Assembly: GCA_036261885.1 (NCBI GenBank)
Contig: DATAJY010000017.1
Span: 226,581-290,580, forward strand
Direction of reading: 5' to 3'
DNA: 64,000 bases
From: Thermoanaerobaculia bacterium
Lineage (GTDB): Bacteria; Acidobacteriota; Thermoanaerobaculia; Gp7-AA8
The translations under genes were made by a program, and so were the position numbers. The notes under the pieces were generated by a model. It worked only from the letters and a program-made list of their open reading frames with translations, ran no database searches and was not told where the DNA came from. Of the stretch, positions 15,873-34,505 are shown in pieces (position 1 is the stretch's first letter; each line of letters opens with the position of its first letter).

Positions 15873-15913
15873 CGGACGAACCGCATGTGAGACCTTCGGA
15901 GGGAAGTGTCGTC

Positions 15914-17731: not shown

Positions 17732-17783
17732 ACCATCTTCTTCGGCGCCTTCGTTTTTGCGGAGCGCCGCTTTCATCTGCATC

Positions 17784-19758: not shown

Positions 19759-20064
19759 TTAGTTGGACGGCTCGTTGAGTCCGAAGGGAGCGACCGAGGA
19801 GTCGCCGCGGATCTCGCCGAATTTCTGCTCGAAGAGCGTGATGTTCTGCGCCATCGCTTCGAGGAACTGTTTGGCGTGCAGCGGCGTGAGGATCACGCGG
19901 CTGTAAATCTTCACGTCCGGACGGCCCGGAACGACGCGCCCGAGATCGATGATGAACTCGGCCTGCGAGTGAATGATGTTCGCGAAGTTGACGTACTCGC
20001 CCTGGGCGACGTTCTCGTCGATAGTGATGCGGATGGTCGGCGGCTGTTGCTGCGGATTGTCCAT
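19759..20064 (-). CDS. DUF3467 family protein
   Basis: AQGEYVNFANIIHSQAEFIIDL...SRVILTPLHAK...YE/FEQKFGEI. Confidence 0.8.
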   Translation of the reverse strand: MDNPQQQPPTIRITIDENVAQGEYVNFANIIHSQAEFIIDLGRVVPGRPDVKIYSRVILTPLHAKQFLEAMAQNITLFEQKFGEIRGDSSVAPFGLNEPSN

Positions 20065-20113
20065 TTCGGACGCGTCAACGGGGTGGCCGTGGAGGCAATT
20101 CCTCTGGCGAACG

Positions 20114-20923
20114 TCACGCGTGGGTCGCGGCGATGATGCGCAGCGGCGCCTTCGAGACCGCGCCGAGCACGCTCTTCGTCGCGTTCGCATGCATTTCCGC
20201 CGACTGCACGAGCACCGCCTCGGCGATGTCGCTCCACGCGCGGCCGCCGAGGTTCAGCATCGACAGCGCCACCTCGAGCGGCGACATGCTCGGATTGAAC
20301 GCCGCGTTCTCCGCGTACGCGCCGCTGACGATCGTGCCGTCGTGCGTGCGCAGCGCCACGCCGGCATACGCCTTCGAATACGGCGCGTAGCTGCGGTTCG
20401 CCGCATCGAGCGCCGCCTCCGCGAGCTCGTCCTCATCGAGGATCGCCAGATGATGGTTCTCGCGCTGCAGCAATCCGCCGGCGATGCCGAGATCGCGCGG
20501 GCCGAACGCATTCGGCAGCAGGGCCGTCAACGGCAGCGTGGCATTCGGCATCGCGATCGTCAGCGACGGCGCGGTGGTGAGCTCGTTGAGAAACTGCCGG
20601 CAGTAGCCGCACGGCGGTGCGTTCACCGCCAGCAGGTCGATTCCCTCTTCGCCGTGCATCCACGCGTTGGTGATGCTCGACTGCTCCGCGTGCACGGTGA
20701 AGCTGAGCGCCTCGCGGGCGAATTCGACGTTCGCACCGAGGTAGAGATTGCCGGTGGTCGTGCCGCGCGACACCACGCCGACGCGGTAATTCGACACCGG
20801 CGGCCGTGCGAATTCCGCCGCCTCCGCGAGCAGCGTCGTCATCAGCGCCGCGACGTCGAAGCCCGCTTCGCGCGCGCGCCGCTCTGCTTCTGCCGCGGGG
20901 ATCACAGCTCGTGGATCGCTCAT
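20114..20923 (-). CDS. cdd: Cytidine deaminase (two-domain type)
   Basis: GANVEF, HAEQ, PCGYCRQF, SYAPYS, ENAAFNPS. Confidence 0.92.
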   Translation of the reverse strand: MSDPRAVIPAAEAERRAREAGFDVAALMTTLLAEAAEFARPPVSNYRVGVVSRGTTTGNLYLGANVEFAREALSFTVHAEQSSITNAWMHGEEGIDLLAVNAPPCGYCRQFLNELTTAPSLTIAMPNATLPLTALLPNAFGPRDLGIAGGLLQRENHHLAILDEDELAEAALDAANRSYAPYSKAYAGVALRTHDGTIVSGAYAENAAFNPSMSPLEVALSMLNLGGRAWSDIAEAVLVQSAEMHANATKSVLGAVSKAPLRIIAATHA

Positions 20924-21084
20924 CGGAAGGGGGATGCTAACCCACCTTTCCCGCTCTCCGCTGAAACGCTGGCACTTCTTTCGTCACTACATCCATGACT
21001 CCTTAGGGTAGGGACTTCCCGACTTCTGTCACTCCCCTATTAAGCCAGTCCAATAAAAATTCGGTCACAGCGGGAGGTGCCCCC

Positions 21085-23322
21085 ATGCGGCGATTCCGTA
21101 ATCGCGTACTCGTCGGCGTCTGTGTTCCCATTCTCATCGCCTCTCTGGCCGGATGCGCTTCGACGCGGCCGGTGAAGCAGAGCTGGGTGGAGAACTATCA
21201 GTACGTCCGCTTCGATCCGTTTCCCGGCATGAACGTGCAGGGGCGGAACGTCACCCTTACTCAGGACGAAATCGACGGACGGGTGGTCTGGAACCTCTGG
21301 TCCGGCGACAACGCCGGCTTCTGGAACTGGCTGTCGCAATACGGTTTCGGCACCGGCGACCTGTTGAAGATGGTCGCTTCGCCGCGCAATCAGCGCTTCC
21401 AGACCTACGGCGTCGTGAATCAGCCGGGCTTCATGCAGGCCGCGCAACCCGATGAATACGGACTGCTCATCGACGTGCCGCGCGAGCCGGGCTCGAAGTA
21501 CGACATCGATCAGCGCCTCGACCTCAAAACGTACGGGAAGTCGAGCGGCATCATGGGCCTGCGGCTCTTCAGGAACCCGAACTTCAATGCCGCGACGTGG
21601 GACGCGAACAAGTACTGGAACGATCCCAATTACTACACCAATCCGAAGCTGGAGCGGCCGTATCGCGTCGGCATGGCCTGTTCGTTCTGCCACATCGGCC
21701 CCGATCCCACCAATCCGGCGAAGGATCCGAACGAGCCTGATTTCGCGAATCTCTCCGACTACGTCGGCCAGCACTACATGAAAGTGTGGGAAGTGTTCGG
21801 CCACGACATGAAGAACGACAACTTCATCAAGCAGCTGCTGATGACCAACCCGGCCGGCACGCTCGACACGTCGTTCATCGCCACCGATTACCTCAACAAC
21901 CCCGGCACGATGAACGCGGTCTACAACCTCGCCCCTCCGGGACGCGTCGGGGTGGCCGTTCCGGAAAAGCTCGCCGGCGGCGCGGCCGATCTCAGGAACC
22001 TCGAATACACGGCCGGTACGACCGACATGGTCACGACGCCGCGCGTGCTCAAAGAGGGAGCCGATTCCGTCGGCCTCAATGCGGCGCTGTCGCGCGTCTA
22101 TCTCAACATCGGCGAGTACTACGAAGAATGGTTGCGCCATTTCCGCCCGCTGGTCGGCATCAAGAAACAGACGCCGATCTCGGTCAAGGCGTCGCAGGCG
22201 AATTCGCCGGCGTGGAACTGGAGCGAGCGCGATGCGCCGAAGCTGGCGGGCTATCTGATCAAATACGCGAGACCGCACAAGCTCGCCGACGCTCCGGGCG
22301 GCAGCAAGTACCTCACCGCCGACGCGAAGACGCTCGAGCACGGCAAGATGGTCTTCGCGCAGAACTGCGCGCGCTGCCATTCGAGCAAGCGCCCGCCCAG
22401 CGGCGTCGATCCGAAGTCGAAAGAGGGAATCGCGTGGTTCGAGCAGTCGGTCGCGCAGAACGATTTTCTCGACGGCAACTTCCTCTCCAGTGAAGCGCGC
22501 GTACCGATCACCGAAGTGAAGACGAACGCCACGCGCGCCTCGGCGACGAACGCGCTCGCGGGACACGTCTGGGACAACTTCTCGTCGCAGACCTACAAAG
22601 AGCTTCCGGCCGTCGGCGCGATCGACGTCTGGGATCCGATCTCGAAGACCGATTCGAAATGGACCGTGCCGAGTCCCGGCCGCGGCTACTACCGCCCGCC
22701 CTCGCTCGTGAGCGTCTGGAGCGCGGCGCCGTTCCTTCACAACAATGCCGTCGGCAAGCACGTGCACGGCATCTCCGTCGAAGAACGGATGGAGGCCTTC
22801 CATGACGGCATCGAGAAAATGCTCTGGCCGGAAAAACGGGCCGGCGCCGCGGGGAACCACGACGGCGCGGCCGGGCAGTCGACCTCACTGTGGCTGACCA
22901 CGGAAGAGAGCTGGCTGCGCGTTCCGGAGTCGTATCTCGAATCGAGAACGCTGCGCCGCCTCCTCAAGCCGCACATGGAAATCGATCCGTCCGATGGCGC
23001 GCGCTATTTCGCCTTCGGCCCGATTCCGAAAGGGACGCCGGTCAATCTTCTCGCCAACACCAATCTCGAACTGGGCGGCGTGCACAAAGCGGGCGATCTG
23101 GCCAAGCTGCTGATCGAGTCCGTCAAGGTGATGAAGGAGATCAGGAAGCAGGGGCTCACCGGCGACGCCGCCACGAAGCGATGGCTGGAATCCGACGTCG
23201 TGCGCGCGCTCTACGCGCTCAATTCCTGTCCTGATTTCATTGAAGACCGCGGCCACTATTTCGGGACCGATCTTCCGGACGGCGACAAACGCGCGCTGGT
23301 CGAGTTTCTCAAGACGTTCTGA
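21085..23322 (+). CDS. Di-heme c-type lipoprotein, RoxA/bCcP/MauG-like superfamily
   Basis: Lipobox LAGC; CSFCH and CARCH; YRPPSL..VW..APFLHN; C-terminal GHYFGTDL...KRALVEFLKTF. Confidence 0.75.
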   Translation: MRRFRNRVLVGVCVPILIASLAGCASTRPVKQSWVENYQYVRFDPFPGMNVQGRNVTLTQDEIDGRVVWNLWSGDNAGFWNWLSQYGFGTGDLLKMVASPRNQRFQTYGVVNQPGFMQAAQPDEYGLLIDVPREPGSKYDIDQRLDLKTYGKSSGIMGLRLFRNPNFNAATWDANKYWNDPNYYTNPKLERPYRVGMACSFCHIGPDPTNPAKDPNEPDFANLSDYVGQHYMKVWEVFGHDMKNDNFIKQLLMTNPAGTLDTSFIATDYLNNPGTMNAVYNLAPPGRVGVAVPEKLAGGAADLRNLEYTAGTTDMVTTPRVLKEGADSVGLNAALSRVYLNIGEYYEEWLRHFRPLVGIKKQTPISVKASQANSPAWNWSERDAPKLAGYLIKYARPHKLADAPGGSKYLTADAKTLEHGKMVFAQNCARCHSSKRPPSGVDPKSKEGIAWFEQSVAQNDFLDGNFLSSEARVPITEVKTNATRASATNALAGHVWDNFSSQTYKELPAVGAIDVWDPISKTDSKWTVPSPGRGYYRPPSLVSVWSAAPFLHNNAVGKHVHGISVEERMEAFHDGIEKMLWPEKRAGAAGNHDGAAGQSTSLWLTTEESWLRVPESYLESRTLRRLLKPHMEIDPSDGARYFAFGPIPKGTPVNLLANTNLELGGVHKAGDLAKLLIESVKVMKEIRKQGLTGDAATKRWLESDVVRALYALNSCPDFIEDRGHYFGTDLPDGDKRALVEFLKTF

Positions 23323-23334
23323 GACGAGGCCTCG

Positions 23335-25167
23335 ATGCCAGACTCCGCTCAGAACCCTGATTTCGATTACATCGTGATCGGGTCGGGCGCGGGTGGCGGG
23401 CCGGTAGCGGCCCGCCTGGCTCGTGCCGGCTACGTGGTCGGTCTCATCGAGGCCGGCCGCGCACCGGAACAGGACTGGTACAACGTGCCGGTCCTGCATG
23501 CCTACGCGAGCGAGCATCCCGACATCTCCTGGGAATTCTTCATCCGCCATTACGAAGACGAGGCACGCTCCAGGCGCGATCCGAAATATCTGACCGATCC
23601 AGGCGGCGTCTTCTATCCGCGCGCCGGAACCCTCGGCGGATGCACGCAGCATCACGCCATGATCACCGTCTATCCGCACAACAGCGACTGGCAGCACATC
23701 GCCGATCTCACCGGTGACAATTCGTGGGCGCCCGACAAAATGCGCGCCTATTTCGAGAAGCTCGAAGCATGCTCGTACGTCAGGGATCCGGGTGCCGGAA
23801 ATCCGAACCCGACGCGTCACGGCTACAAGGGCTGGCTCGGTACCGCCGCACTCGACCTGACCCTCGGCCTTGGAGATCCCGCCGTGGTGCAGACGGTATT
23901 GCGGGCCGTGAAGGAGGCGTGGAAAGACGGCTTCAGTGGACCGCTTCCCGATCTCATTCCCAAAGATCCGAATGACTGGCGCACGCCGCAATTCGAAGGT
24001 GTGGCCTTCGCGCCGCTGGCGACGCTCAAAGGGCGCCGGGCCGGCACGCGCCAGCTCTTGCAGGACACGATGGCCACGTTTCCACAGAAACTGGTCCTCA
24101 AACAAAGCCACCTGGCCACGCGCATTCTCTTCGACGCCGGCAAGCGCGCCGTCGGCGTGGAATGCCTGCAGGGGCAGCACCTCTATCGCGCCGATCCGAA
24201 TGCGGCAGCCGCGAATGCGAATGCGACGAAAATCAGCTACTACTGCCGGCGCGAGGTCATTCTCGCCGGCGGCGCGTTCAATTCTCCGCAGTTGCTGATG
24301 CTCTCCGGAATCGGGCCGGCGGCGCATCTGCAGCAATTCAGGATTCCGGTCGTCGTCGATCGCGCGGGCGTCGGGAAGAACCTGCAGGACCGTTATGAAG
24401 TGGCGGTCGTCAGCGAATTGAAGCAGGACTGGAAAATCATCAGGAACGCGACGTTCGCGCCGCCGCCCGATTCCAATACCACCGGCGACCCGTGTTACGT
24501 CGACTGGCAGAACGGGAAAGGCGTCTATACGACCAACGGTGCGCTTCTGGCGGTGATCCAGAAATCATCGCCCCAGGTGCCGGAGCCCGATCTCTTCCTC
24601 TTTGCACTGGCCGGCAATTTCCACGGCTATTTCCCCGGCTATTCGAAGCAGGTGGAGCGGACGAAGAACTACCTCACCTGGATGGTTCTCAAAGGGCATA
24701 CGAAAAACAATGCCGGGTACGTGCGCCTGAAATCAGCGGACCCGCGCGACAGGCCCGAGATCAATTTCCGCTATTTCGACAATGCGGGCGACGCAAAGAG
24801 CGATCTCGATGCGCTGGTCAAGGGAGTTTCGTTCGCGCGGCGCATTTCGAAGAGCAATACGGCCATCAAGAGCGAAGTGATTCCCGGCCCGGCCGTGGCC
24901 ACCGACGAACAGGTGCGGTCGTTCATTACGGACAACGCGTGGGGACATCACGCCTCCTGTACGAATCGCATTGGAAAACCGGGCGATCCGGAGGCGGTGG
25001 TCGACAGCAGGTTTCGGGTCATCGGCGCGAGCAATCTGCGCGTCGTCGACGCTTCGGTATTTCCCCGCATTCCAGGATTTTTCATCGTCACGCCGATCTA
25101 CATGATCGCGGAGAAAGCCGCGGACGTGATTCTGGCGGACGCAACGAATGCCCAGGCGCGTCCCTGA
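23335..25167 (+). CDS. GMC family FAD oxidoreductase
   Basis: DYIVIGSGAGG, RAGTLGG, GGAFNSPQLLMLSGIG, VGKNLQD, WGHHASCT, LRVVDAS. Confidence 0.92.
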   Translation: MPDSAQNPDFDYIVIGSGAGGGPVAARLARAGYVVGLIEAGRAPEQDWYNVPVLHAYASEHPDISWEFFIRHYEDEARSRRDPKYLTDPGGVFYPRAGTLGGCTQHHAMITVYPHNSDWQHIADLTGDNSWAPDKMRAYFEKLEACSYVRDPGAGNPNPTRHGYKGWLGTAALDLTLGLGDPAVVQTVLRAVKEAWKDGFSGPLPDLIPKDPNDWRTPQFEGVAFAPLATLKGRRAGTRQLLQDTMATFPQKLVLKQSHLATRILFDAGKRAVGVECLQGQHLYRADPNAAAANANATKISYYCRREVILAGGAFNSPQLLMLSGIGPAAHLQQFRIPVVVDRAGVGKNLQDRYEVAVVSELKQDWKIIRNATFAPPPDSNTTGDPCYVDWQNGKGVYTTNGALLAVIQKSSPQVPEPDLFLFALAGNFHGYFPGYSKQVERTKNYLTWMVLKGHTKNNAGYVRLKSADPRDRPEINFRYFDNAGDAKSDLDALVKGVSFARRISKSNTAIKSEVIPGPAVATDEQVRSFITDNAWGHHASCTNRIGKPGDPEAVVDSRFRVIGASNLRVVDASVFPRIPGFFIVTPIYMIAEKAADVILADATNAQARP

Positions 25168-25188
25168 CGTGCCGGCAGAGGAGGCCTC

Positions 25189-26925
25189 ATGAGGAAAGCC
25201 GGGCTTTTATGCATCGTCCTGCTGGCGCATGCGGGGGCGTTCGGACAGATCGTTCCGAATCCGCCACCGGAGAAGAACCCGCACGCGTGGGCGGATGCAG
25301 ACAGGAAGTATCCATCGGCGAAGGTCTGTGGCCAGTGCCATCCCTCGCAATATCAGCAGTGGAGCGTGTCGTCGCACGCGTACGCGAACCTCTCGCCGAT
25401 GTTCAATAAATTCGAGCAGACCATCAATGACCTGTCGCAGGGCACAGTGGGCCATTTCTGCGTCCGCTGCCACGCCAGCGTCGGCACGGCATTGGGGGAG
25501 CTCCGGAACATCGCCTGGTGGGATCGCAGCGCCGCGTCGCGGGAAGGCATTACGTGCGTGAGCTGCCACCGCGTCGGCGAGGCGTATGGGAAAGTCAATG
25601 CCGCGCGCCGCATTACACCGGGCGACATTCACGAGCCGGTATTCGGCCCGCTCGATAACAGCGGCGGCGTCAAGGCGATCAGCAACGCCGCCGATTTCAA
25701 AATTCTCGTCAGTCCGGATCAACCCGATCAGCCCGGCTATCTGCGCATTCACCAGACCGTCGTGCAGTCGGATCTGATCCGCAAATCGGAATTCTGCGTC
25801 GCCTGCCACCAGGTGCAGGTGCATCCGGGCATCAAGCTCGAAACGGTCTGGGAAGAATACCGGGCCTCTCCCGCGGCGAAAGAAGGGATCACCTGCCAGC
25901 AGTGCCACATGAGCACGAATCCCGGCACGCCGAGCGGGTACGGCGAGGGGCCGATTGCGTTCGTCAATGGCAACGTCGTCAATTCCAAACGCCCGATGAC
26001 CGATCACACATTCGTCGGTCCGGGCTATCCGATCAGCCATCCCGGCCTCTTTCCGTTCCGGCTCGAAGAGTCGCCGTTCACGCCGCAGCAATGGCTGACC
26101 TTCAACTATCGCGAGGAATGGGGCGACGAGGCGTTCGAAAGCACCTCGCCGCCGGCGGACAAGTTCCCACCCGAATGGCAGAACGTCGCCGATCGCCGGA
26201 AGGCGTGGGTGATCGTGAAGGAGAATCTCGGCCGCTGGTATGAGCGACGCGAAGGGCGCAGGAAAATCCTGAGCAATGCCTCGCACCTCGACGGCCCGTT
26301 CTTCAAGAACAAGCCGGCGGCGGGGAAGGCGCTCACGTTCGAATACCGGATCCGCAATCTCAACAAGGGCCACAACCTCCCATCCGGATCTCTCGGCGCG
26401 CAGCCGGAGCTGTGGCTCAACGTCGCGCTGCTCGATCCGAGCGGAGCGATCGTCTGGGAATCGGGGTATGTCGACAGTGTCGGCGACGTTGCCGATCTGC
26501 AGTCGGACGACGTTCGTCATGGACGCGTTCCGCATGACGACCAGCTCGTGAGCATGCAGGCGAAATTCATCACGACCAACGTCAAGGGGACCGATCGCGA
26601 GATGTACCTGCCGATCAACCTCGACGTCGACCAGCGGCCGTTCATTCGACCCGGTGGAACGCCGACCTCTCTCGTCAATCACCCGCCGCTGGCGCGCATG
26701 GAAAAGCGCAGCATCCCGCCATTGGGAACCCGCGTCGCGCAATACAAAGTGCCGGCCGCAAAACTGCAGCAGCGCGGAACCTACAAGCTCGCGGTGCGAT
26801 TACGCGGCCGCACGGAGCCGATCTATTTCATGAATTTCGTCAAGGCCACGAAGGACATGATCCGCGCCGAAAACGAATGGGCCGATGACATCCATCCGTA
26901 TGCCGTCGAATTCGAAGTTCATTGA
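25189..26925 (+). CDS. Periplasmic multiheme (5 CxxCH) cytochrome c
   Basis: Signal peptide; CGQCH, CVRCH, CVSCH, CVACH, CQQCH; C-terminal GHNLPSG Ig-like region. Confidence 0.88.
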   Translation: MRKAGLLCIVLLAHAGAFGQIVPNPPPEKNPHAWADADRKYPSAKVCGQCHPSQYQQWSVSSHAYANLSPMFNKFEQTINDLSQGTVGHFCVRCHASVGTALGELRNIAWWDRSAASREGITCVSCHRVGEAYGKVNAARRITPGDIHEPVFGPLDNSGGVKAISNAADFKILVSPDQPDQPGYLRIHQTVVQSDLIRKSEFCVACHQVQVHPGIKLETVWEEYRASPAAKEGITCQQCHMSTNPGTPSGYGEGPIAFVNGNVVNSKRPMTDHTFVGPGYPISHPGLFPFRLEESPFTPQQWLTFNYREEWGDEAFESTSPPADKFPPEWQNVADRRKAWVIVKENLGRWYERREGRRKILSNASHLDGPFFKNKPAAGKALTFEYRIRNLNKGHNLPSGSLGAQPELWLNVALLDPSGAIVWESGYVDSVGDVADLQSDDVRHGRVPHDDQLVSMQAKFITTNVKGTDREMYLPINLDVDQRPFIRPGGTPTSLVNHPPLARMEKRSIPPLGTRVAQYKVPAAKLQQRGTYKLAVRLRGRTEPIYFMNFVKATKDMIRAENEWADDIHPYAVEFEVH

Positions 26926-26939
26926 GAAAGGAGGCGAAC

Positions 26940-28427
26940 GTGAACGTAATCCAACGCACTGTGACCCTCCTCGTGGCACTGTCAATGACAATGGCCGTGG
27001 CGATGCCGCTGTGGGCCGATGATGAACCGCCGTTGATGTCGCCGGAAGCGAAAATGCTCGGCGAGCTGAAAGACGTCAAGGGATGGTTCGGTCCCGATCC
27101 GCAATACCCGAAAGCGGAGTACGACGGCCAGGCGCAACTCGAAATCTACAGTGGCAAATACCTCAACAAGACGGCGAAGCCGCTCATTGAATGGGGCATG
27201 CGTCTGTACGACCGAGGCGAGTACACGCCGCGGCCGACGTGGCTGGGGCGTGAGAATCCGATCTACTTCCACTTCATGTCGTATGGCGATCTGCGCGTGG
27301 CGGGTGCTCTGTATGACCGCGGCGTGTCGGGTGCGAGCGGTACCGAGCAGTCGGCGATCGCGGTCCGTCTCAATCTCGACATGGATCTCGCGCTCACGTC
27401 GACCGAGCGCATCCACGCTTTCGTTCGTCCGCTCGACAAGAACGGTTCGTTCACGCGCTATCAATTCAAAGGCGCGGTGGACGACGAATTCATCGACGAA
27501 TTCGATTTCGATCTCGACACGCTCTTTTTCGAAGGCGACCTCGGATCGATTCGCGAAGGGCTGACCGGCCGCCGCCAGGGGCCGGATCATCCGATCGCGT
27601 TCGGGCGCGTGCCTCTCCTGACGCAGAACGGCGTCTGGGTCGAGGACGCATTCGACGGCCTCGCCTTCGGCTTCACGGCGCGCAACAGTCCGAAGTACGA
27701 CATCAGCAACATGGATCTGACGTTCTTCGCGGCGTTCGACAAAGTCACCACCGCCGCGGCGCCGGGCGACGATGCGAAAGCGTTCGGCTTCGCCGGTTTC
27801 ATGGATGCGCGCAAGGGCTACATCGAATACGGCTACGGGTTCGTCGCGGCCGACGATGACGATCTCAGCTACCACAACGTCACGGCCGCATTCACGCGCC
27901 GCTATTTCGGCCATCTCGCCAACAGCGTGCGCGTGATCGGCAACTTCGGGCAGCAGGGCGTCGCCGGTAACAAGACCGCGGACGGCGTGCTGCTGCTGGT
28001 CGAGAATTCGTTCTTCCGCCGCGATCCGATCAAGCTCGTGCCGTATGTGAATCTCTTCGCCGGCTTCGACTCGCCGCAGTCGCTGGCCCGCAATGCCGAT
28101 GCCGGCGGCGTCCTGCGCAATACCGGAATCAATTTCGAATCCGACGGCATCACCGCCTATCCGACGCTCGATGCCAGCGCGCACAAGGCGTATGGCGGAG
28201 CGGCCGGACTGGAATGGCTGTTCAAGCTCGACCGGCAGATCGTGGTCGAAGGAGCAGTGGTGCAACGTACCGGCGGCAGCGCGCTCGGCGACGAATACGC
28301 GCTCGGTGTCCGCTATCAACATCCGATCACCAACGCCTGGATCGTCCGCGCCGACGCCATGCACGGATGGCGGCAGGGACAGAAGGACGTCTATGGCGTC
28401 CGTCTGGAACTGCGCCGGAAATTCTGA
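26940..28427 (+). CDS. Putative outer-membrane beta-barrel protein
   Basis: GGAGG SD then GTG; signal peptide; alternating aromatic/Gly strands; ends VRLELRRKF with terminal Phe. Confidence 0.65.
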
Positions 28428-28437
28428 GGAGGATGCG

Positions 28438-28902
28438 ATGCCTGTATTTCAGCTCCACGTCAATGGCAGCGTGCGTACAGTGAACGTCGACGGCAACATG
28501 CCGCTCCTGTGGGTCTTGCGCGACGAGCTCGGACTGACCGGAACGAAATTCGGATGCGGTATCGCTCAATGCGGCGCCTGCACGGTGCATCTCAATGGGC
28601 ACCCGGTGCGCTCCTGCGTCACGGACGTCGGCGTCGCCGCGCTCGCCGAGATCACCACCATTGAAGGCTTGTCGCCCGACGCCAGCCATCCGTGTCAGCG
28701 CGCGTGGCTCGAGCTCGGCGTACCGCAATGCGGCTTCTGCCAGCCCGGCCAGATCATGAGCGCGGCGGCGCTGCTGCACGACAAGCCGAATTGCACCGAC
28801 GACGAAATCGACGACGCGATGCGCGGCAACATCTGCCGCTGCGGCACCTATCCGCGCATCAAGGACGCGATCCGCAGACTCTCCGGAGGCACGCGGTCAT
28901 GA
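28438..28902 (+). CDS. (2Fe-2S)-binding small subunit, IorA/CoxS family
   Basis: [16 protein letters not shown]...SC; QCGFCQPG; GNICRCGTY. Confidence 0.93.
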
Positions 28903-31454
28903 CCACGCTCGTCGAGATCACCCGCAGAGACTTCCTCCGCCACACCGGCGTCGGCACGAGCGCACTGGTGCTCGGATTCACCGTTTCGCCGAATCTCTTC
29001 GCCGCCGGAAAATTGATCGATGCCGTGACCAACGGCGTCGCGCTGGCGCCGTTCGTGGCCATCAAGCCGTTGAGCGGCGATATCGTGATCATCACCCATC
29101 GCGCAGAGATGGGGCAGGGCATCCGCTCCAGTCTGGCCGCGGTCATCGCCGATGAGATGGATGCGGACTGGAAACGCGTGACCCTGCGGCAGTCCGATGC
29201 GGATTCGGTCACGTTCGCCGTCGCCTATCCGTATCAGCCGGCCGATCAACCGAAGTACATCGTCGACGGCAATCTCGCGCAATTCACCGACAGCTCGCGC
29301 AGCATGGCCGCCTATTTCGGGCCGATGCGCCTGTTCGGCGCCGCCATCCGGCTGGTGATGATGCGCGCGGCCGCGAGGAAGTGGAAGATGCCCGACACCT
29401 CGCAGCTCGAGACGCGCGAGCACAAGGTGTGGGTCAAAGGGACGAAACGGAATGTCGATTACGGCAAGCTGCTGCTGCACGCGCGCGCGGTGGCGAAAAC
29501 TCCTCCCGATTACGAGGAGATCGTGGCCGCGCTGAAGCCGATCGACAAATGCACGTTCATCAACAAGGAGAAGATTCCGTTCGTCGACGCGCCCGACATG
29601 GTGACGGGCAGGACGAAATACGGCGCCGACATTCGTCTGCGCGGCATGCTCACGGCCGTCATCGAGCGATCGCCGGTAGCGAACGGCGACGTCGAGAGTT
29701 TTGACGACAGCGAAACGCGCAAGGTCGATGGCGTCGTCGACGTCATTCCGGTGCGCCTGCCCGGCCCGCTCGGTCTTGGCGGCGTCGGCGGCGCATTCGC
29801 ACCACACAGCGGTGTGGCCGTCCTGGCGAAGAACACCTGGGCGGCGATGCAGGGCCGCAAGAAGCTGAAGGTGAAATGGACGCAGAGCCCGCACGACGGT
29901 TATGAGACCGAGGCGTATCGGCGGGAGCTCGAAGCCTCGGCTGCGGCGCCGGGCGAGAAGGTGCGCGTACGCGGCGACGTCGACCGGGCATTCGCCGGCG
30001 CGGCCACGATCGTCGAGGCGCAGTATTACGTGCCGCATCTCGCACAAGCGCCGATGGAGCCGCCGGTGGCGACGGCGCTATTCGAAAACGGCAAACTCGA
30101 GGTGTGGGCGCCTTCCCAGAATCCCGATAGCGCGCAGCAGATGGCCGGTGTGGCCGCGTTCGGCATTCCGCCCGAACAGTGGGAGCTCCCGAGCACCATC
30201 GAGGAAATGCGCCGCAAGGTCACCGTGCATCTCCCGCTCCTCGGCGGCGGATTCGGCCGCAAATCGAAACCCGACTACATCGTCGAGGCGGCCATTCTCG
30301 CGGCGAAGAAACCAGGCACGCCCATCCGCGTGCAATGGACGCGCGAAGACGACGTTCGCTTCAGCTACTTCAACGCCGTTTCCAGCCAGTACCTGAAGGC
30401 TGGTCTCGATGGCTCCGGCCGGGCCACCGCGATTCTGCAGCGCAGTGCGGCGCCGTCGATTTTTGCGACGCTGTTTCCGCCGCCCGCGGATCCCGAGCAT
30501 CCGACTCCGGCCGAACAGTTCTTCATTCAGAAACGCGCCGATTTTCACGACGGCGGCAAGTACCCATACTCCTCGGCGACGGAACGCGCGCAGGGGCTGG
30601 AGGACATGCCGTTCGATCTTCCCAACCTGCAACTCGAGAGCTGCGCGGCGAAGAACCACATCCGCATCGGCTGGATGCGTTCCGTGGCGAACGTCTATCA
30701 CGCCTTCGCCATCGGCTCGTTTGTCGACGAAATGGCGCGCGCGGCCGGCAATCAGGACCCGGTGAATTACCTGCTCGAGCTGATCGGAAAGGGCTCGGTG
30801 CTGGATGAGAAGACGTTCCACAAGGAAGGCGTCGCGCATTTCAACAACAATGAATTTCCGTTGAACCCCGGCGTGGTCACCAATCCGCGCGGCGAGTCGA
30901 TCATCGTGGTCAAGCCATACGAGCCTGATTCGCGGCGCCTGCGCAACGTCATCGAACGCGCGGCCGCGAGCGCTCAGTGGAAGGATCGCCATGGCCGGCT
31001 GCCGAAAGGACGGGGACTCGGCATCGCCGCGCATCGCAGCTTCCTCACGTACGTGGCGATGGTGTTCGACGTATCGCTCAATGAATCGAATGAACTGACG
31101 ATCAACGAGGTGCACGCTTCGATCGATTGCGGTCTGGCCGTCAATCCCGATCGCGTGCGTGCGCAGATCGAAGGGGGCATCAATTACGGGTTGAGCATGG
31201 CCCTGCTGGGAGAGATCACGGTGCGGGACGGACAGGTGCAGCAGCGCAATTTCGACAATTACCCGGTGCTGCGCATCACGCAGATCCCGAAGAAGATCAT
31301 CATCGACATCGTCGAGAGCGATCGCGATCCGACCGGTGTCGGCGAGCCTCCCACTCCGGTGGTGGCGCCGGCGCTCGCCAATGCGATCGTCGCCGCCGGT
31401 GGGCCGCGCATTCGCGAGATGCCGTTCCACAGGCACATCAAAGTCGTCGCGTGA
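28899..31454 (+). CDS. Molybdopterin large subunit, isoquinoline/aldehyde oxidoreductase (IorB-like), Tat-exported
   Basis: ITRRDFL Tat motif; [25 protein letters not shown]; ATGA overlap. Confidence 0.9.
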
Positions 31455-31457
31455 ACG

Positions 31458-32981
31458 ATGGAGCTCCTGCGCATCCTCGAAGAGGCGCGTGCCGCGGGTG
31501 GTGGTGACTGCGCGCTGGCGACGGTGGTCGAGACCAACGGCTCGACCTACCGTCGTGCCGGGGCTCGGCTGATCGTGCGCGGCGATCGCAGAACGTGGGG
31601 TGCGATCAGCGGCGGCTGTCTCGAAGCAGACATCATCGAGCGCGCACTGCGCGCGATCGCAACCGGTGAAGCCGCGCTGGCGCGCTACAAGCCGGCCGCG
31701 GACGATCTCGTGGTCGGTCTCGGCAGCGGCTGTCAGGGCGAAGTGGTGGTCTTCATCGAGCCGCTGCCTCCTTCACTCCTCGAAGCAGGGCCGGACGCGA
31801 ACGACGGAGATGCATGGATCACCATGTATCGCGGAGAGACCCGCGGTACGACCATCGGTCGCACGGTCGATGCGCCGGACGACGCCTTCGTGCAGCCGAT
31901 CGTGGCGCGGCCGGCGCTGCTGTTGTTCGGCGCGTCACCGGCCGCCGAGGATCTGCTGCGGTTTGCCAAAGGCCTCGGATGGTGCGTGCGTGTCGGCGAT
32001 CATCGGCCGTTCGTGGCGAACGACCCGCGTTTCGCCGCCGCCGACTCGATCGAGATCGCGCCGGTCGAAGAACTGCCCGCGCGATTTTCCTATGCATCCT
32101 CGACGGCCGCGGTGGTGATGACGCATCACTACCTGCGCGACCTCGCGCTCCTGCGCCGGCTCGCTCCGATGCGACTCGCGTATCTCGGACTGATCGGTGC
32201 GCGGGAGCGGGCGCGTAAACTCATCGCCGAAGCCGGAATCGACGAATCGGCCGTGCACGCGCCGGCGGGACTCGACCTCGGCGCCGACGCACCGGCCGAG
32301 ATCGCGTTGTCGATCGTGGCGGAGATCCAGTCCGTGTTGAAACGAACCACCGCCACCGCTCTCCGGAATCGCCCCGGCCGCATTCATGACGCGCCGGAAG
32401 AAAACGCGATCGTCATTCTCGCCGCCGGCGGGTCGCGACGACTGGGCCATCCGAAACAGCTCGTCGAGATCGACGGCCAGTCGCTCATCCGTCGCGCGGC
32501 GGAAGCGGCACTGGCGGTGGGGAGCGGCTCGGTACACATCGTCGTCGGCGCCGAGGTTCTTCGCGTGCGCGCGGCGCTGGAGGGCCTGCCGGTCGAGTGG
32601 ATCGTCAACGACGCGTGGGAGGAGGGGATCGCCTCCTCGATTCGCGCGGCCGTTGATGCCATCGAACAGCGCCCGCAACCCGTCGAGACGATGACGCTCA
32701 TGCTGTGCGATCAACCGGGCGTGACCACGGATGTGCTGCGTCGTCTGCTCGATGCCTGGCGCGGCACGCGTTCCGCCGTCATCGCCTCGCGTTATCCCGA
32801 AGGGGCGGGCGTGCCGGCGCTGCTGCATTCCGCGCTCTTTCCGGCGCTGAAAACGCTGCGGGGCGACATCGGGGCACGGCAGCTGATTCGCGAGCTCGAT
32901 CGCGACATCGTCACCATTCCGCTCGACCTTCCGGACGATGTCGATACGGCGGAAGATGTGCGCCGTTTGCGCATTCCGTGA
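31458..32981 (+). CDS. XdhC/CoxI chaperone fused to a MocA-like NTP transferase
   Basis: GSTYRRAGA, ISGGCLE, MTH..RD, PAGLDLG..PAEIALSI, followed by ILAAGGSRRLG.PKQL, LCDQP, GDIGAR, DVDT. Confidence 0.9.
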   Translation: MELLRILEEARAAGGGDCALATVVETNGSTYRRAGARLIVRGDRRTWGAISGGCLEADIIERALRAIATGEAALARYKPAADDLVVGLGSGCQGEVVVFIEPLPPSLLEAGPDANDGDAWITMYRGETRGTTIGRTVDAPDDAFVQPIVARPALLLFGASPAAEDLLRFAKGLGWCVRVGDHRPFVANDPRFAAADSIEIAPVEELPARFSYASSTAAVVMTHHYLRDLALLRRLAPMRLAYLGLIGARERARKLIAEAGIDESAVHAPAGLDLGADAPAEIALSIVAEIQSVLKRTTATALRNRPGRIHDAPEENAIVILAAGGSRRLGHPKQLVEIDGQSLIRRAAEAALAVGSGSVHIVVGAEVLRVRAALEGLPVEWIVNDAWEEGIASSIRAAVDAIEQRPQPVETMTLMLCDQPGVTTDVLRRLLDAWRGTRSAVIASRYPEGAGVPALLHSALFPALKTLRGDIGARQLIRELDRDIVTIPLDLPDDVDTAEDVRRLRIP

Positions 32982-32984
32982 GCC

Positions 32985-33007
32985 GATTGCGCACTCATTG
33001 CGCAATC
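32985..33007. promoter_or_regulatory. Perfect 9-bp inverted repeat at the junction of the redox and lanthipeptide modules
   Basis: GATTGCGCA-CTCAT-TGCGCAATC. Confidence 0.45.
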
Positions 33008-33152
33008 CCGTGTCAGGCGTCACTGAAGCGGCACACTTTAGTTACGTCATGACGGACAAACATACTTGAACCGTTACCGCCGCGTCTCTAATGTAGATGC
33101 ACATACATCAGGAGATCGGGAAACGGTGGACGGACTCACGCGGGAAGCAGTG

Positions 33153-34505
33153 ATGGCCGGCGCTTCGGCGGCGGTACATGCGGAAGCGGAAGAACCGGCT
33201 GGTTGTACGCGCGGCCGACTCGTGTACTGGCTCGGCTGGCAACTGCCGCCGCGCGGTGCCTGCGAGCGGCTCGAAGCGAACGGCTTCCGCTGGCGCGTGG
33301 CCACCAATGCCGCGGATGTCTCGCGCATCGCCGCGCAGTCGGTGCTCTGTTTCGCTCCCCACGCGTCGAGCGCACTGGTGAAACGAACGCTGGACGCGCT
33401 GGCGGGCCGTGCCTGCGCGGTGATCGTGCACGGCGCGCGCGAGCAACTCGCGGCGTTCGCGGAGCTGCTGGACGGCGATCGACTCTTCTATCTCGCGGCG
33501 GGTGTGCTCGAAGAGCGCGACCTCGCGGCGATCGTCGAGGCGGCGGCGCGGCAATTCGAGGAACGGCGCGAGCTCGATGATGCCGCGCATGAGATCACGG
33601 CTGGCGTGCTGCGCCGCATCGCGCTGGCGCAGAGCGTCGTCGAGCTCTCCACCGCCGTGAAGGCGGCGATCGTGCGAACCGTGAGCGCGGAGCGCGGTCG
33701 ATGTCTGCTCTTCGATCGGGAACGGCAGGTGCTCTGGCCGGCGTCGCGTGGAGACGATGACGGCGAGAGCATCGCCGCGGGGCTGAGCAGTTTCGCGCTG
33801 CGCACCGGCGAGGCAGTGCTGGCTGGCTGTGCGGTGGCCGATCCCCGGTTCGATCGCGAGCTCGATCATCCCGAGGGTCGCGACAGCGATCGGCTTCTGG
33901 CGGTGCCGGTGCGCGCGCGCAAAGGCGACGGAGTGGCGGTGCTGATCGCTTCACGTCCGAAAGAGGAGCGCGCTTTCGACGCGCGCGATGTGGCTGCGCT
34001 CGAAACGCTGGCCGCGCACGTGGCGCCCTACATCGTCGCGTGGCTGCCGGCGCCCGATGTGCCGACGGACTCGCCGTTTCGTACGCAGGCGTTGCGCGAG
34101 CTCGCATCGCCGTCGGTCGCCGGCGCGGAACCGCTGCGACTCGATCCGGCGTGGACCAGGCGGGTGACGCTCCTCGGAGTGGTGACGCTGCTGGTGGCCA
34201 TCGTCGCCGCGATCTTCGTACGCGTGCCGGAGTACGCAGCGGCAGACGCGATGGTGCGCAACGGCACACTGACCGCGACCTTTGCCGCTCCGCACGCGAA
34301 CGAGATCGAGCGCGGCATGACGCTGCGCTACGGCAAGGAATTGATGACCGTCGAACGCGTCGATGCGATCGGGTCGCGCGTCATCGTCATCGCGCGCGTG
34401 CCTTCGCTTGTCGATGAATCGCATGGTCGCGCCGAGGTGCGCGTGGGGAGCGAGCGGCTGCTCTTCGTGATTTTCCCGAAACTCAAAGGAGCCACGCGTG
34501 TCTGA
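33153..34505 (+). CDS. GAF-domain protein fused to a TM helix and a truncated HlyD/secretion-adaptor-like region
   Basis: GAF motifs (GL..FALRTGE, DPRFD, LLAVPV, AFD.RDV..LE.LA), then PFRTQAL...PLRL.PAW, a TM helix, and GRAEVRVGSERLL..IFP. Start could be as far up as 33066. Confidence 0.7.
   Translation: MAGASAAVHAEAEEPAGCTRGRLVYWLGWQLPPRGACERLEANGFRWRVATNAADVSRIAAQSVLCFAPHASSALVKRTLDALAGRACAVIVHGAREQLAAFAELLDGDRLFYLAAGVLEERDLAAIVEAAARQFEERRELDDAAHEITAGVLRRIALAQSVVELSTAVKAAIVRTVSAERGRCLLFDRERQVLWPASRGDDDGESIAAGLSSFALRTGEAVLAGCAVADPRFDRELDHPEGRDSDRLLAVPVRARKGDGVAVLIASRPKEERAFDARDVAALETLAAHVAPYIVAWLPAPDVPTDSPFRTQALRELASPSVAGAEPLRLDPAWTRRVTLLGVVTLLVAIVAAIFVRVPEYAAADAMVRNGTLTATFAAPHANEIERGMTLRYGKELMTVERVDAIGSRVIVIARVPSLVDESHGRAEVRVGSERLLFVIFPKLKGATRV

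Follow-up and report, generated by a model that had tools for sequence, protein, structure and literature searches.

A 64,000-nucleotide stretch of soil acidobacterium DNA (hereafter the window) carries seven adjacent genes, among them those for a multiheme cytochrome, a barrel-like protein and a molybdenum enzyme, and raises the question of whether they form a single exported pathway whose electrons cross the outer membrane. We confirmed all seven open reading frames (g1 to g7) on the plus strand. The tight, co-oriented packing given in a preliminary description of this DNA was borne out, with intergenic gaps from g1 to g7 of 12, 21, -4, 10, -4 and 3 nt, so that the largest is 21 nt and two are 4-nt overlaps. 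Because the genes recur jointly in dozens of loci, their clustering is far beyond chance. In one soil metatranscriptome run, contigs at least 99% identical to the window lay on g1, g3 and g6 and spanned the g2/g3 and g6/g7 junctions; the library may contain DNA, and a divergent upstream gene was covered too. These contigs are weak evidence for expression of the cluster.

Three separately conserved modules

We found a g3 homologue immediately before g4, in the same orientation, in 59/59 loci with at least 1.9 kb of DNA upstream of g4, and a g5 homologue after g4 in 44 of the 76 loci with at least 700 nt downstream. Where class A loci had 6 kb or more on each side, g3-g4-g5-g6 were contiguous, g1 was present in 18/18 and g2 in 14/18, so the genes do co-occur elsewhere. 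They do not, however, make up the single seven-gene module first described: the g1-g2 pair was also found in other genomes without the remaining cluster genes, and g3-g4 was found within ptd/PCC4 clusters without the molybdenum enzyme, g1 or g2. The cluster is thus a composite of three separately conserved modules, g1-g2, g3-g4 and g5-g6-g7. Since g1-g2 occurs without the other genes, its link to the molybdenum enzyme may be loose.

In class B loci, the ptd/PCC4 gene set surrounds g3-g4, meaning that a different electron-feeding chain is attached to the same unit. A tree of the barrel split 21 rows from molybdenum-enzyme loci and 14 rows from ptd contexts on one branch (support 100/100), and the named members of the lineage with g3-g4 directly upstream of the molybdenum enzyme all belonged to Thermoanaerobaculia or Holophagales. 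As the preliminary description had stated, no characterised pathway matched the cluster.

The pentaheme cytochrome and its barrel

The g3 gene (25189-26925, +) encodes a 578-residue, Sec-exported, PtdA-type pentaheme cytochrome with five CxxCH motifs (residues 47, 91, 123, 203 and 236) and a heme-free C-terminal domain (~290-578). The protein matches PF13435 (4.9e-10), and its family profile matches pentaheme cytochrome c552 (5ze8; 5.5e-12), while the C-terminal domain has no Pfam match and structural matches only to PtdA-like cytochromes. The next gene, g4 (26922-28427, +; 501 residues, ending in RRKF), encodes a PtdB-type outer-membrane beta-barrel with a conserved N-terminal arm (residues ~46-112). 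It starts at a TTG at 26922; the start at 26940 used earlier is an in-frame GTG six codons downstream. We found no family match for g4 in Pfam or NCBIfam and no sequence relative among solved structures (best E 0.45). Its AF2 model, built from a 67-sequence alignment, is nonetheless the beta-barrel that had been suspected (pLDDT 88.8, pTM 0.80); the top Foldseek match is AlgE (8.2e-11), and structure comparison (VIA) gave Z-scores of 26.8 to OpdQ, 26.8 to MOMP, 24.3 to AlgE and 23.2 to chitoporin, with 314-335 residues aligned at an rmsd of 3.0-3.3. We are therefore confident of an 18-strand OprD/AlgE-like fold for the modelled protein. It differs from the OprD/Occ, MOMP, AlgE and chitoporin channels that share this fold in having no sequence-family match, and in its conserved 70-residue N-terminal arm and obligate cytochrome partner.

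Judged by sequence, g3-g4 is a homologue of an already described pair, the PtdA-PtdB pentaheme cytochrome and porin of the ptdABCDEFG cluster (Elbon, Stewart & Glass, bioRxiv 10.1101/2023.11.21.568154), which is the same as PCC4 (He et al. 2017, PMC5566968). In the available text of both papers, the function of ptd/PCC4 is a proposal, and the hosts are marine or freshwater Proteobacteria, Nitrospirales and Planctomycetes (10.1101/2023.11.21.568154, PMC5566968). The likeness covers the five hemes and heme-free C-terminal domain of g3, the porin-type g4 and the gene order from cytochrome to barrel, and identity to the copies in loci with a full ptd gene set (a tetraheme protein, a cNMP and 4Fe-4S protein, a membrane protein, a decaheme protein and an FAD/NAD reductase) is 46-59% for g3 and 44-56% for g4. 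The hosts seen here, in contrast, are soil Acidobacteriota, and the window lacks ptdC-G, carrying instead a Tat-exported molybdenum enzyme, its maturase, a di-heme lipoprotein and a GMC enzyme. One protein query found no PtdG in the window's genome, and the only PtdF-like match there is weak (3.1e-9) and on another contig. What is new here is the joining of a PtdAB-type cytochrome-barrel unit to an exported molybdenum oxidase of the aldehyde type.

Several lines of evidence indicate that g3 and g4 very probably form a complex. Beyond their invariant adjacency, the two are naturally fused in three (L008, L011 and L013) of the 52 loci that carry complete copies of both genes; in these three, the C-terminus of g3 runs in frame into mature g4, which has lost its signal peptide. 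Fusions of g3 and g4 also occur in the protein database, as 16 clusters of 1038-1079 residues with PF13435 among the 25 longer homologues. We also co-folded residues 46-501 of g4 with residues 36-578 of g3, each given as its own 35-row alignment and with no hemes included. The score was 0.90 in 3/3 runs, compared to 0.00 for the best of three controls; among solved complexes 116 of 157 attain the mark for this score, and among mismatched pairs 2 of 215 do, a rough guide only where alignments of one's own are used. Because the barrel has no solved sequence relative, this pass is unlikely to reflect memory of a solved complex. The runs shared at least 72% of their ~400 contacts, with a partner pLDDT of at least 84. 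On many strands the contacts involved alternating residues and reached as far as 7-9 residues above the periplasmic turns; they also ran along residues 52-113 of g4. Invariant g4 residues were enriched in the predicted interface (28/64 versus 139/456 overall; odds ratio 1.97, p = 0.018), but those of g3 were not (43/149 versus 137/543, p = 0.27). Docking of g3 on g4 is thus supported by structure prediction and natural fusions, although a co-fold without hemes cannot show how close they would come to the outer face.

The cytochrome-porin pair of the preliminary description therefore stands as a unit, but it is neither Mtr-like nor new, having been described as PCC4 in 2017 and as PtdAB in 2023. 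As in MtrCAB, MtoAB and PioAB, a periplasmic multiheme cytochrome gene adjoins an outer-membrane barrel gene, and the co-fold places g3 partly inside the barrel; we found no sequence relation to those systems, however, and g3 has five hemes rather than ten. The MtrB barrel has 26 strands, compared to 18 in g4, and the match between the two structures is weak (Z 11.3, rmsd 8.9). The g4 barrel is not an Mtr-type sleeve, and an 18-strand barrel cannot sheathe an entire multiheme protein. The fused members of the g3-g4 family, in which one polypeptide starts with the cytochrome and ends with the barrel, resemble Cyc2 of iron oxidisers. Cyc2 is a fused cytochrome-porin with one heme and a 16-strand barrel, whereas the g3-g4 family has five hemes, an extra domain of 290 residues and 18 strands, and its members in the window are two separate genes.

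The molybdenum enzyme and the genes upstream

Downstream of the barrel, g5 (28438-28902, +; 154 residues, ATG start at 28438) encodes the 2x[2Fe-2S] small subunit of a molybdenum enzyme, lacks a signal peptide of its own and matches PF01799 (2.2e-30) and PF00111 (7.8e-8). The molybdopterin large subunit of IorB/membrane-ALDH type, g6 (28899-31454, +; 851 residues), matches PF02738 (7e-28) and PF20256 (7.5e-21) and carries the Tat motif RRDFLRH (TIGR01409, 20.5 bits; cut-off 16.7), which is retained in 37 of 38 homologues, the odd row being a truncated match. Every score of g6 against the NCBIfam equivalogs was far below its cut-off. The best solved matches are the small and large subunits of an aldehyde dehydrogenase, 8gy3_B for g5 (1.1e-53) and 8gy3_C for g6 (9e-56), in keeping with the earlier view of a Tat-exported enzyme that may oxidise aldehydes. 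The last gene, g7 (31458-32981, +; 507 residues), encodes an XdhC-MocA fusion, a cytoplasmic maturase and cytidylyltransferase for the molybdenum cofactor, with matches to PF02625 (1.8e-23), PF13478 (3.6e-29) and PF12804 (4.8e-37; XdhC plus a MobA-like NTP-transferase) and, each below its cut-off, to NF045664 (XdhC family AOR maturation factor; 2.6e-37) and TIGR03310 (MocA; 5.7e-32). From these matches, g5-g6-g7 is a Tat-exported molybdenum enzyme of the IorAB or membrane-ALDH type with an XdhC-MocA maturase, as listed in the preliminary description.

Like the Gluconobacter membrane-bound aldehyde dehydrogenase (PDB 8gy3) and the IorAB-type hydroxylases, this enzyme has its Tat signal on the large subunit and no FAD subunit. 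Enzymes of this family act mostly as dehydrogenases, and the Gluconobacter enzyme delivers electrons to the respiratory chain through a triheme cytochrome c subunit. The g6 subunit differs in being ~80 residues longer, and the window has no triheme subunit, a PtdA-type pentaheme cytochrome and barrel standing in that place. The g5-g6-g7 module has no cytochrome subunit of its own, and the cluster contains no cytochrome gene for it apart from g3.

Upstream, g1 (21085-23322, +) encodes a 745-residue di-heme c-type lipoprotein (lipobox LAGC; CxxCH at residues 199 and 428), distantly related to RoxA and the NF040606 di-heme family. Two CxxCH motifs were present in 31/31 homologues extracted from loci, and the N-termini that were read are lipobox-like. 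A bCcP/MauG/RoxA fold had been suggested for this protein, but the matches that speak for it are weak and partial. The matches to NF040606 (3.9e-11; 42.8 bits, cut-off 150) and PF21419 (2e-4) are below cut-off; three family members match NF040606 at 3.9e-11 to 4.2e-13, with weak RoxB and RoxC matches and a RoxB-type C-terminal motif, and a C-terminal motif of g1 recurs in a true NF040606 member (hhalign probability 92%, 25 columns). The RoxA homology is limited to the second heme region and this motif, PF03150 gave no hit, and among solved chains the g1 profile retrieved none of RoxA, MauG or CcpA, its best match (E 0.0076) being to generic cytochrome c motifs.

The second gene, g2 (23335-25167, +; 610 residues), encodes an FAD oxidoreductase with both GMC domains (PF05199, 3.1e-30; PF00732, 1.2e-19). 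Among solved structures, it comes closest to a chloramphenicol-inactivating oxidoreductase (8b7s, 4.2e-40), choline oxidase and fatty-acid photodecarboxylase. It has no signal peptide; its Rossmann motif begins at residue 11 and the GxGxxG at residue 15, and none of the 19 homologues with a readable N-terminus has room for one. Export of all seven products, as first proposed, thus fails for g2 as it does for the cytoplasmic maturase g7, and alcohol oxidation in the envelope is not indicated. Without an export signal, g2 cannot simply feed a periplasmic enzyme unless an intermediate crosses the inner membrane.

The route of the electrons

We propose that the g3-g4 unit takes the electrons of a periplasmic molybdenum enzyme and discharges them at the barrel, and we regard the chances of this model as a whole as evenly balanced. 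Exported pentaheme g3 would dock on outer-membrane g4, whose N-terminal arm would clasp it and whose periplasmic half would hold part of it. Matured by g7 in the cytoplasm and then exported by Tat, g5-g6 would oxidise an aldehyde or similar activated C-H substrate in the periplasm, and its two [2Fe-2S] clusters would pass electrons to g3, the putative acceptor, a step that we favour slightly. From g3 the electrons would be discharged at the barrel to an acceptor outside the cell or to one reaching the hemes through the barrel; that they leave the cell through g4 is doubtful, if possible. The g1-g2 pair would probably generate the substrate or process it beforehand, with g1 acting in the envelope through oxidative cleavage or peroxide chemistry and g2 oxidising an alcohol on the cytoplasmic side.

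The closeness of the g4 fold to substrate-specific channels, together with the cytochrome c subunit through which the 8gy3 enzyme feeds the respiratory chain, could instead mean that g4 is an OprD/AlgE-type channel for substrate or product, with g3 sitting at its mouth in the role of the absent cytochrome c subunit. Electrons would then run inward through soluble cytochromes to a terminal oxidase, and none would cross the outer membrane. We consider this somewhat unlikely, as a g3 fused to g4, or lying in its lumen as predicted, would block a simple channel, and the same pair serves another electron chain in ptd/PCC4 loci that lack the molybdenum enzyme, where its partners are a cytoplasmic NAD(P)-binding reductase, a ferric-reductase-like membrane protein and tetra- and decaheme proteins. 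Its presence in such unlike electron chains argues for a redox role of the pair itself rather than uptake of one substrate. Electrons could also flow inward from an extracellular donor such as Fe(II), Mn(II) or reduced humics, with the molybdenum enzyme a reductase or unrelated; the available text on PCC4 proposes that it links an extracellular donor with the quinone pool in this way (He et al. 2017, PMC5566968). Class A loci lack a membrane quinone-linked partner in the cluster, and the window's genome offers only the weak PtdF-like match and no PtdG match noted above. With the dehydrogenase activity usual in this molybdenum family, inward flow becomes very improbable.

Two other readings start from the upstream genes. 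The co-conservation of all enzyme classes in class A loci and the aldehyde dehydrogenase-like molybdenum enzyme would fit an envelope pathway in which the GMC enzyme turns alcohol into aldehyde and H2O2, the molybdenum enzyme turns aldehyde into acid, the di-heme enzyme consumes the peroxide and the cytochrome-porin conduit exports the electrons; but g2 lacks a signal peptide and is absent from four of the 18 well-covered class A loci, g1-g2 stands alone in other genomes, and the peroxidase assignment of g1 is weak, making this pathway quite improbable. Only a little less so is a pathway analogous to rubber degradation by Lcp or RoxA and then OxiAB, in which g1, as a RoxA-like di-heme dioxygenase, would act at the cell surface and cleave an unsaturated lipid or polyisoprenoid into aldehydes, g5-g6 would convert these to acids and g3-g4 would take the electrons. 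In the available text of PMC13737355, Streptomyces sp. K30 and Actinoplanes sp. OR16 have oxiB and oxiA, in that order, after a rubber oxygenase gene, and the two products make up a heterodimeric molybdenum hydroxylase acting outside the cell to oxidise oligo-isoprene aldehydes. The likeness is one of logic, an extracytoplasmic heme oxygenase gene beside an exported heterodimeric molybdenum hydroxylase for the aldehyde products (PMC13737355), and the NF040606, RoxB and RoxC matches of the g1 family are consistent with it. However, g1 is at most a distant RoxA relative, with its homology confined as described above and no solved chain found; the rubber systems have no cytochrome-porin unit, and the role of g2 is left without explanation.

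Should our proposal of a g3-g4 unit fed by the molybdenum enzyme hold, a periplasmic oxidation would probably gain its own electron outlet at the cell surface.

Two classes of loci around a shared cytochrome-barrel pair

The region from 21085 to 32981, in a window with a G+C content of 62-68%, is filled by seven plus-strand open reading frames, g1 to g7, separated by 12, 21, -4, 10, -4 and 3 nt when g5 is started at the ATG at 28438. Domain scans and motif counts recovered each of the features listed for these genes in a preliminary description made from the sequence alone. The observation of a seven-gene cluster is thereby confirmed, and the interpretation given with it is partly supported. 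Its description of the whole module as exported does not hold for g2, a GMC flavoenzyme that has no signal peptide here or in any of 19 homologues with a readable N-terminus, nor for g7, a cytoplasmic maturase.

Upstream of g1 lies a 161-nt intergenic region (20924-21084), which is divergent because the genes before it, encoding a dimeric-type cytidine deaminase (20114-20923; NF006537, 1e-90) and a trmFO-like protein (18445-19755; PF01134), are on the minus strand. The same trmFO and deaminase synteny occurs in loci L009, L052, L054 and L090. Beyond them are genes for a diphthamide-synthase-like protein (17757-18464; PF01902) and a TonB-dependent receptor (15887-17731). On the other side, starting 84 nt past the cluster, 33066-36741 encodes a 479-aa GAF-domain protein and then a 747-aa ABC exporter that begins with a C39 peptidase domain and is of the bacteriocin or peptide exporter type. 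A scan for promoter-like sites (1 found, 2.5 expected) and terminator-like sites (7 found, 10.5 expected) was uninformative.

We mapped the window proteins onto 91 loci containing homologues, 11 from species genomes and 80 from metagenomes, using conserved stretches from a 10-row alignment as the query for the metagenome loci. The division into classes rests on the 76 loci whose sequence continues for at least 700 nt past g4, the barrel gene; a g5 homologue follows g4 in 44 of the 76, and 13 loci were too short to classify. In class A (46 loci) g4 is followed by g5 and/or g6, the subunits of a molybdenum enzyme, and is 56-72% identical to the window copy; class B (32 loci) has neither, and its g4 is 44-56% identical. 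As the preliminary description had anticipated, the genes do co-occur elsewhere: where class A loci extend at least 6 kb on both sides, g1, a di-heme lipoprotein, is present in all 18, g2 in 14 and g7 in 9, with g1 and g2 variable in position and strand. Neither g1 nor g2 was found in the 12 class B loci with the same coverage. All ten class A loci from named genomes come from Thermoanaerobaculia or Holophagales MAGs. In a maximum-likelihood tree of the barrel, built from 35 rows with complete, normal-length gene pairs only, a single branch with 100/100 support splits the 21 class A rows from the 14 class B rows; one partner change therefore explains the pattern, its direction not being given by this unrooted tree.

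When the open reading frames of the 32 class B loci were clustered, a recurrent gene set emerged around g3-g4. It comprises two further cytochromes, one tetraheme and c554-like and the other decaheme, a protein that combines cNMP binding with 4Fe-4S clusters, a ~274-aa protein without a Pfam or NCBIfam family, a reductase that binds FAD/NAD and has a 2Fe-2S domain and, often, an FHA-domain protein. With exactly this content, ptdABCDEFG was defined by Elbon, Stewart and Glass, whose preprint, in its accessible portion, calls the function completely unknown (bioRxiv 10.1101/2023.11.21.568154). The same set appears as "PCC4" in the accessible portion of He et al. 2017 (PMC5566968), where extracellular electron transfer is proposed. 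Class B thus being the ptd/PCC4 gene set, g3 and g4 are a homologue of its PtdA-PtdB pair: g3, with five hemes and a heme-free C-terminal domain, fits PtdA, and the porin gene g4, homologous to the barrels of ptd clusters, comes immediately after it. We found no description of the class A arrangement in the literature, in line with the earlier statement that no characterized operon with this combination was known. A preprint on extracellular electron transfer in peat (10.64898/2026.05.27.727921) was considered as a prior description and set aside, as its accessible portion deals with other clusters, with 8-13 hemes.

The cytochrome, the barrel and their predicted complex

All five CxxCH motifs of g3 lie within residues 47-240, with none beyond. 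The heme-free C-terminal domain gave structural matches to PtdA-like cytochromes only and no Pfam match at E up to 5; the only solved relative of g3 is a lone c552 structure, 5ze8 (5.5e-12). In both locus classes this domain of PtdA carries the near-invariant motifs GHNLPSGSLGAQPELW and KGT.RE..LP...D.DQ.P..RP, and the near-invariant blocks of g3 itself are residues 390-409 and 466-510 (about 26356-26718 in the window). The first block could be a catalytic or ligand site. Part of the second falls in the predicted interface with the barrel.

No Pfam or NCBIfam family matched g4 at E up to 0.01. By Pfam model it falls outside the OprD/Occ and AlgE channel families, with which it has the fold alone in common, and no solved sequence relative of the barrel was found. 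The family is large: a word-indexed search that scored 8000 candidates gave 1525 proteins with E up to 1e-3, and none of the best 120 listed has a Pfam domain, those with a name being "hypothetical". An exhaustive search of representatives at 50% identity gave 659 matches at a threshold of 1e-3, of which 189 reach 1e-30. The AF2 model built with a 67-row alignment (pLDDT 88.8, pTM 0.80; single-sequence model, pLDDT 33.2) bears out the earlier reading of g4 as a beta-barrel, with long antiparallel strands over residues 114-500 that we read as 18. Aligned against 48,161 chains with VIA-align, this model matched OpdQ and Campylobacter jejuni MOMP (Z 26.8 each), OccAB3 (Z 26.0), AlgE (Z 24.3) and chitoporin (Z 23.2), and its best Foldseek match was AlgE (8.2e-11). 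The model and these matches make g4 an outer-membrane barrel in the size class of 18-strand solute channels. Ahead of the barrel is a conserved ~70-residue arm that had no Pfam match at E up to 5.

Other PtdB barrels are extended in different ways. Some begin with one or two Cds6_C NTF2-like domains (L003, 8903-11419; L092, 3468-5981; P0125 and P0129); Pfam scans found Cds6_C in only 2 of 19 long homologues and assigned most of the N-terminal extensions to no family. Many others carry disordered extensions of 100-800 residues whose sequence, rich in P, S, T and Q, is uninformative.

Three lines of evidence, from adjacency, natural fusions and co-folding, agree in favour of binding between g3 and g4. 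The two genes overlap by 4 nt, and all 59 loci whose known sequence reaches at least 1.9 kb upstream of g4 have a g3 homologue immediately before it in the same orientation; in the short locus L060, where only 267 nt of upstream DNA is known, g3 is downstream on the opposite strand. Natural fusions are encoded by L008, L011 and L013, three of the 52 loci in which both genes are complete: there the reading frame continues from the last residues of g3 (...AVEFE-) straight into mature g4 (...SPEVRMLGELKD...), the g4 signal peptide being cleanly deleted. Among 25 longer database homologues of g4 at E up to 1e-20, 16 are proteins of 1038-1079 aa with a cytochrome c554 domain, and the other 9 have unassigned N-terminal extensions only. 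The co-fold of g4 (residues 46-501) with g3 (36-578), each supplied as a custom 35-row alignment in the same locus order, scored 0.90 in all three runs versus 0.00 for the best of three controls. Of 157 solved complexes 116 attain this mark, and of 215 mismatched pairs 2 do, counts that apply only approximately to custom alignments. Contact agreement between runs was at least 72%, and partner pLDDT at least 84.

The predicted interface is very large (~400 contacts). It covers the arm of g4 (residues 52-113), where residue 56 contacts g3 residues 411, 413, 535 and 537 in an added-strand pattern, and it takes in alternating residues on many of the barrel's strands, as far as 7-9 residues above the turns on the periplasmic side. 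Part of the cytochrome may accordingly sit inside the periplasmic half of the barrel lumen in this model, which contains no hemes and describes docking alone, being silent on electron flow. Conservation gives the interface mixed support: invariant residues are modestly enriched there in g4 (28/64 versus 139/456, p = 0.018) and not in g3 (43/149 versus 137/543, p = 0.27). Of the whole finding, this cytochrome-porin unit is the best-supported element, and the evidence for it is now firmer than what has been published.

Three known systems can be compared with this unit. The cluster does not amount to a complete ptd/PCC4 set, which would include tetraheme and decaheme cytochromes, a membrane protein resembling ferric reductases, an Fe-S/cNMP protein and an FAD/NAD reductase: between 21085 and 32981 there is no second cytochrome gene beside g3, no ptdC-G-type domains were found in the scanned flanks, and in the window's genome (99.6% complete) one protein query for PtdG gave no match and a PtdF-like match was weak (3.1e-9) and on another contig. 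An Mtr-type conduit consists of a barrel of ~26 strands sheathing a decaheme cytochrome, together with a surface decaheme lipoprotein. Here the barrel has 18 strands and matches MtrB at only Z 11.3 with an rmsd of 8.9, versus Z 24-27 for 18-strand channels; the cytochrome has five hemes, and the lipoprotein g1 only two. As for a Cyc2-type fusion of an N-terminal cytochrome with a C-terminal barrel, the window has two separate genes. The fused form does occur in relatives (3 of 52 loci, 16 of 25 longer homologues), but Cyc2 differs from the g3-g4 family by heme count and barrel size. The g3-g4 pair is a member of a family already named in print, with a channel-size barrel.

The molybdenum enzyme and the di-heme and GMC partners

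The best solved matches of g5 and g6 are the small (8gy3_B, 1.1e-53) and large (8gy3_C, 9e-56) subunits of one entry, titled aldehyde dehydrogenase, followed by a Methylobacillus aldehyde oxidase, PaoABC and 4-hydroxybenzoyl-CoA reductase. With a 2x[2Fe-2S] subunit, a MoCo subunit and a Tat signal, the enzyme conforms to the IorAB or membrane-bound ALDH type of the xanthine oxidase family, which is without an FAD subunit. The Pfam domains of g5 and g6 and the Tat model TIGR01409 score above their cut-offs, as do the XdhC_CoxI, XdhC Rossmann and MobA-like NTP transferase domains of the XdhC/MocA maturase g7 (PF02625, PF13478 and PF12804), and the Tat motif is kept in 37 of 38 g6 homologues, the one left being a truncated match. 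All NCBIfam equivalog scores of g6 are far under their cut-offs and so assign it no substrate. Two further IorB-type paralogues occur elsewhere in the window's genome.

The third subunit of the 8gy3-type Gluconobacter enzyme is a triheme cytochrome c. A gene for such a subunit is absent from the cluster, and in class A loci g3 is the only cytochrome gene beside g5-g6, always two genes upstream; for these reasons g3 probably accepts the electrons of g5-g6.

The GMC identity of g2 is clear from PF00732 (1.2e-19) and PF05199 (3.1e-30), both above cut-offs, an N-terminal FAD-binding GxGxxG motif and 64 solved GMC relatives. Its partner g1 belongs to a family of two subfamilies, of ~740 aa and ~825 aa, in which all 31 extracted proteins have two CxxCH motifs and the N-termini that were read are lipobox-like. 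Against NF040606 g1 scored 42.8 bits (cut-off 150) and against PF21419 21.3 bits (cut-off 26.7). The matches of three family members to NF040606 (3.9e-11 to 4.2e-13) cover positions 293-466 of the 524 in that profile, PF21419 was seen in 6 of 23 members, RoxB and RoxC matched the family weakly, and a short C-terminal motif of 25 columns is common to g1 and a true member of NF040606 (hhalign probability 92%). PF03150 did not match g1 at E up to 0.01, and the g1 profile found no RoxA, MauG or CcpA chain among solved structures; the structure matches that sequence and profile did return were generic cytochrome c heme motifs or chance antibody matches and were discarded. An Atlas search with g1 gave unnamed cytochrome clusters only and no g1 model. 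Judged from these profile matches, the relation of g1 to RoxA/CCP enzymes appears real, but distant and partial.

A sample of 301 genomes from the phylum contained g4 in 11 cases, g1 in 14 (E up to 1e-20) and both in only 3. We examined 10 regions around g1 homologues, nine from genomes without a g4 match and the tenth from another contig of a genome (G070) that has one. A g2 homologue lay within ~3 kb in 7 of the 10, and homologues of g3-g6 in none. The g1-g2 pair is therefore a module in its own right, which has been recruited into class A loci. Its neighbours in these regions included other di-heme proteins resembling RoxA, besides DUF4331, TPR and HupE/UreJ_2 proteins. In Acidobacteriota without PtdAB, g1-g2 adjoins recurring DUF4331, TPR and HupE/UreJ_2 genes (L106, 12447-16667; L110, 10242-13045), and this recurrence hints at a metal-linked function for the module. 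Several class A loci have two g1-family genes (L004, 2730-8013; L019, 730-6013; L023, 3217-5694 and 12612-14975), some pairs being divergent 825-aa copies and others having one copy per subfamily; such pairing suggests that the di-heme lipoproteins may have specialized. A precedent for the logic of g1-g2 beside a molybdenum enzyme comes from rubber-degrading actinomycetes, in which, according to the accessible portion of the report, the oxygenase gene lcp is followed by oxiB and oxiA, encoding an exported molybdenum hydroxylase that oxidizes the aldehyde products (PMC13737355).

Occurrence, RNA contigs and proposed role

Three soil DNA runs from one study contain 81-100% of the stretch's sampled words, a plant-associated metagenome 43% and a metatranscriptome of the same soil study 28%; one of the three soil runs could be where this DNA originated. 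Runs X6-X10 contain small shares only. The contigs of the RNA run (X5) on 19800-34600 are short, with 22 of 23 at ≥99% identity. They lie on g1, g3 and g6 and span the g2/g3 (25081-25308) and g6/g7 (31394-31618) junctions, and they also cover the divergent upstream gene; the 10 of 30 bins without cover are not evidence of silence. These contigs are weak evidence for transcription of the cluster, because the library may hold DNA, contigs show neither strand nor level, and the divergent gene is covered too. One RNA contig joining 24206 to 33996 (skipping 9789 nt, at a depth of 185) has 22 letters on one side and was dismissed as probably foreign or chimeric.

The best mechanism, in our view, is one in which a periplasmic aldehyde-type oxidation by the molybdenum enzyme would discharge into PtdA (g3) at the barrel, a proposal we regard as evenly balanced. 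Within it, true export of electrons across the outer membrane is a more doubtful step. If it occurs, a periplasmic dehydrogenase would feed a form of extracellular respiration that bypasses the quinone pool. With similarly low confidence, we propose that PtdAB could be a minimal, portable electron outlet (five hemes and an 18-strand barrel, sometimes in one polypeptide) for varied redox chains, here coupling a molybdenum aldehyde oxidase directly to an extracellular acceptor in abundant soil Thermoanaerobaculia.

The PtdAB/PCC4 pair has been named twice in print and is widely distributed, with 659 sequences matching g4 among representatives clustered at 50% identity. What is new is its joining with a Tat-exported molybdenum enzyme, a di-heme lipoprotein and a GMC enzyme, found among named genomes in Thermoanaerobaculia and Holophagales only. 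Because this second redox partner is quite different from the first, the data suggest that the pair is a reusable module. The locus adds that second partner, natural single-chain fusions, and a confident model of the barrel and of its complex, and together these make the question of conduit or channel directly testable. Should the unit prove to be a conduit, a short route would link the oxidation of organic aldehydes to extracellular acceptors in uncultured soil Acidobacteriota, and this route would bear on soil carbon turnover.
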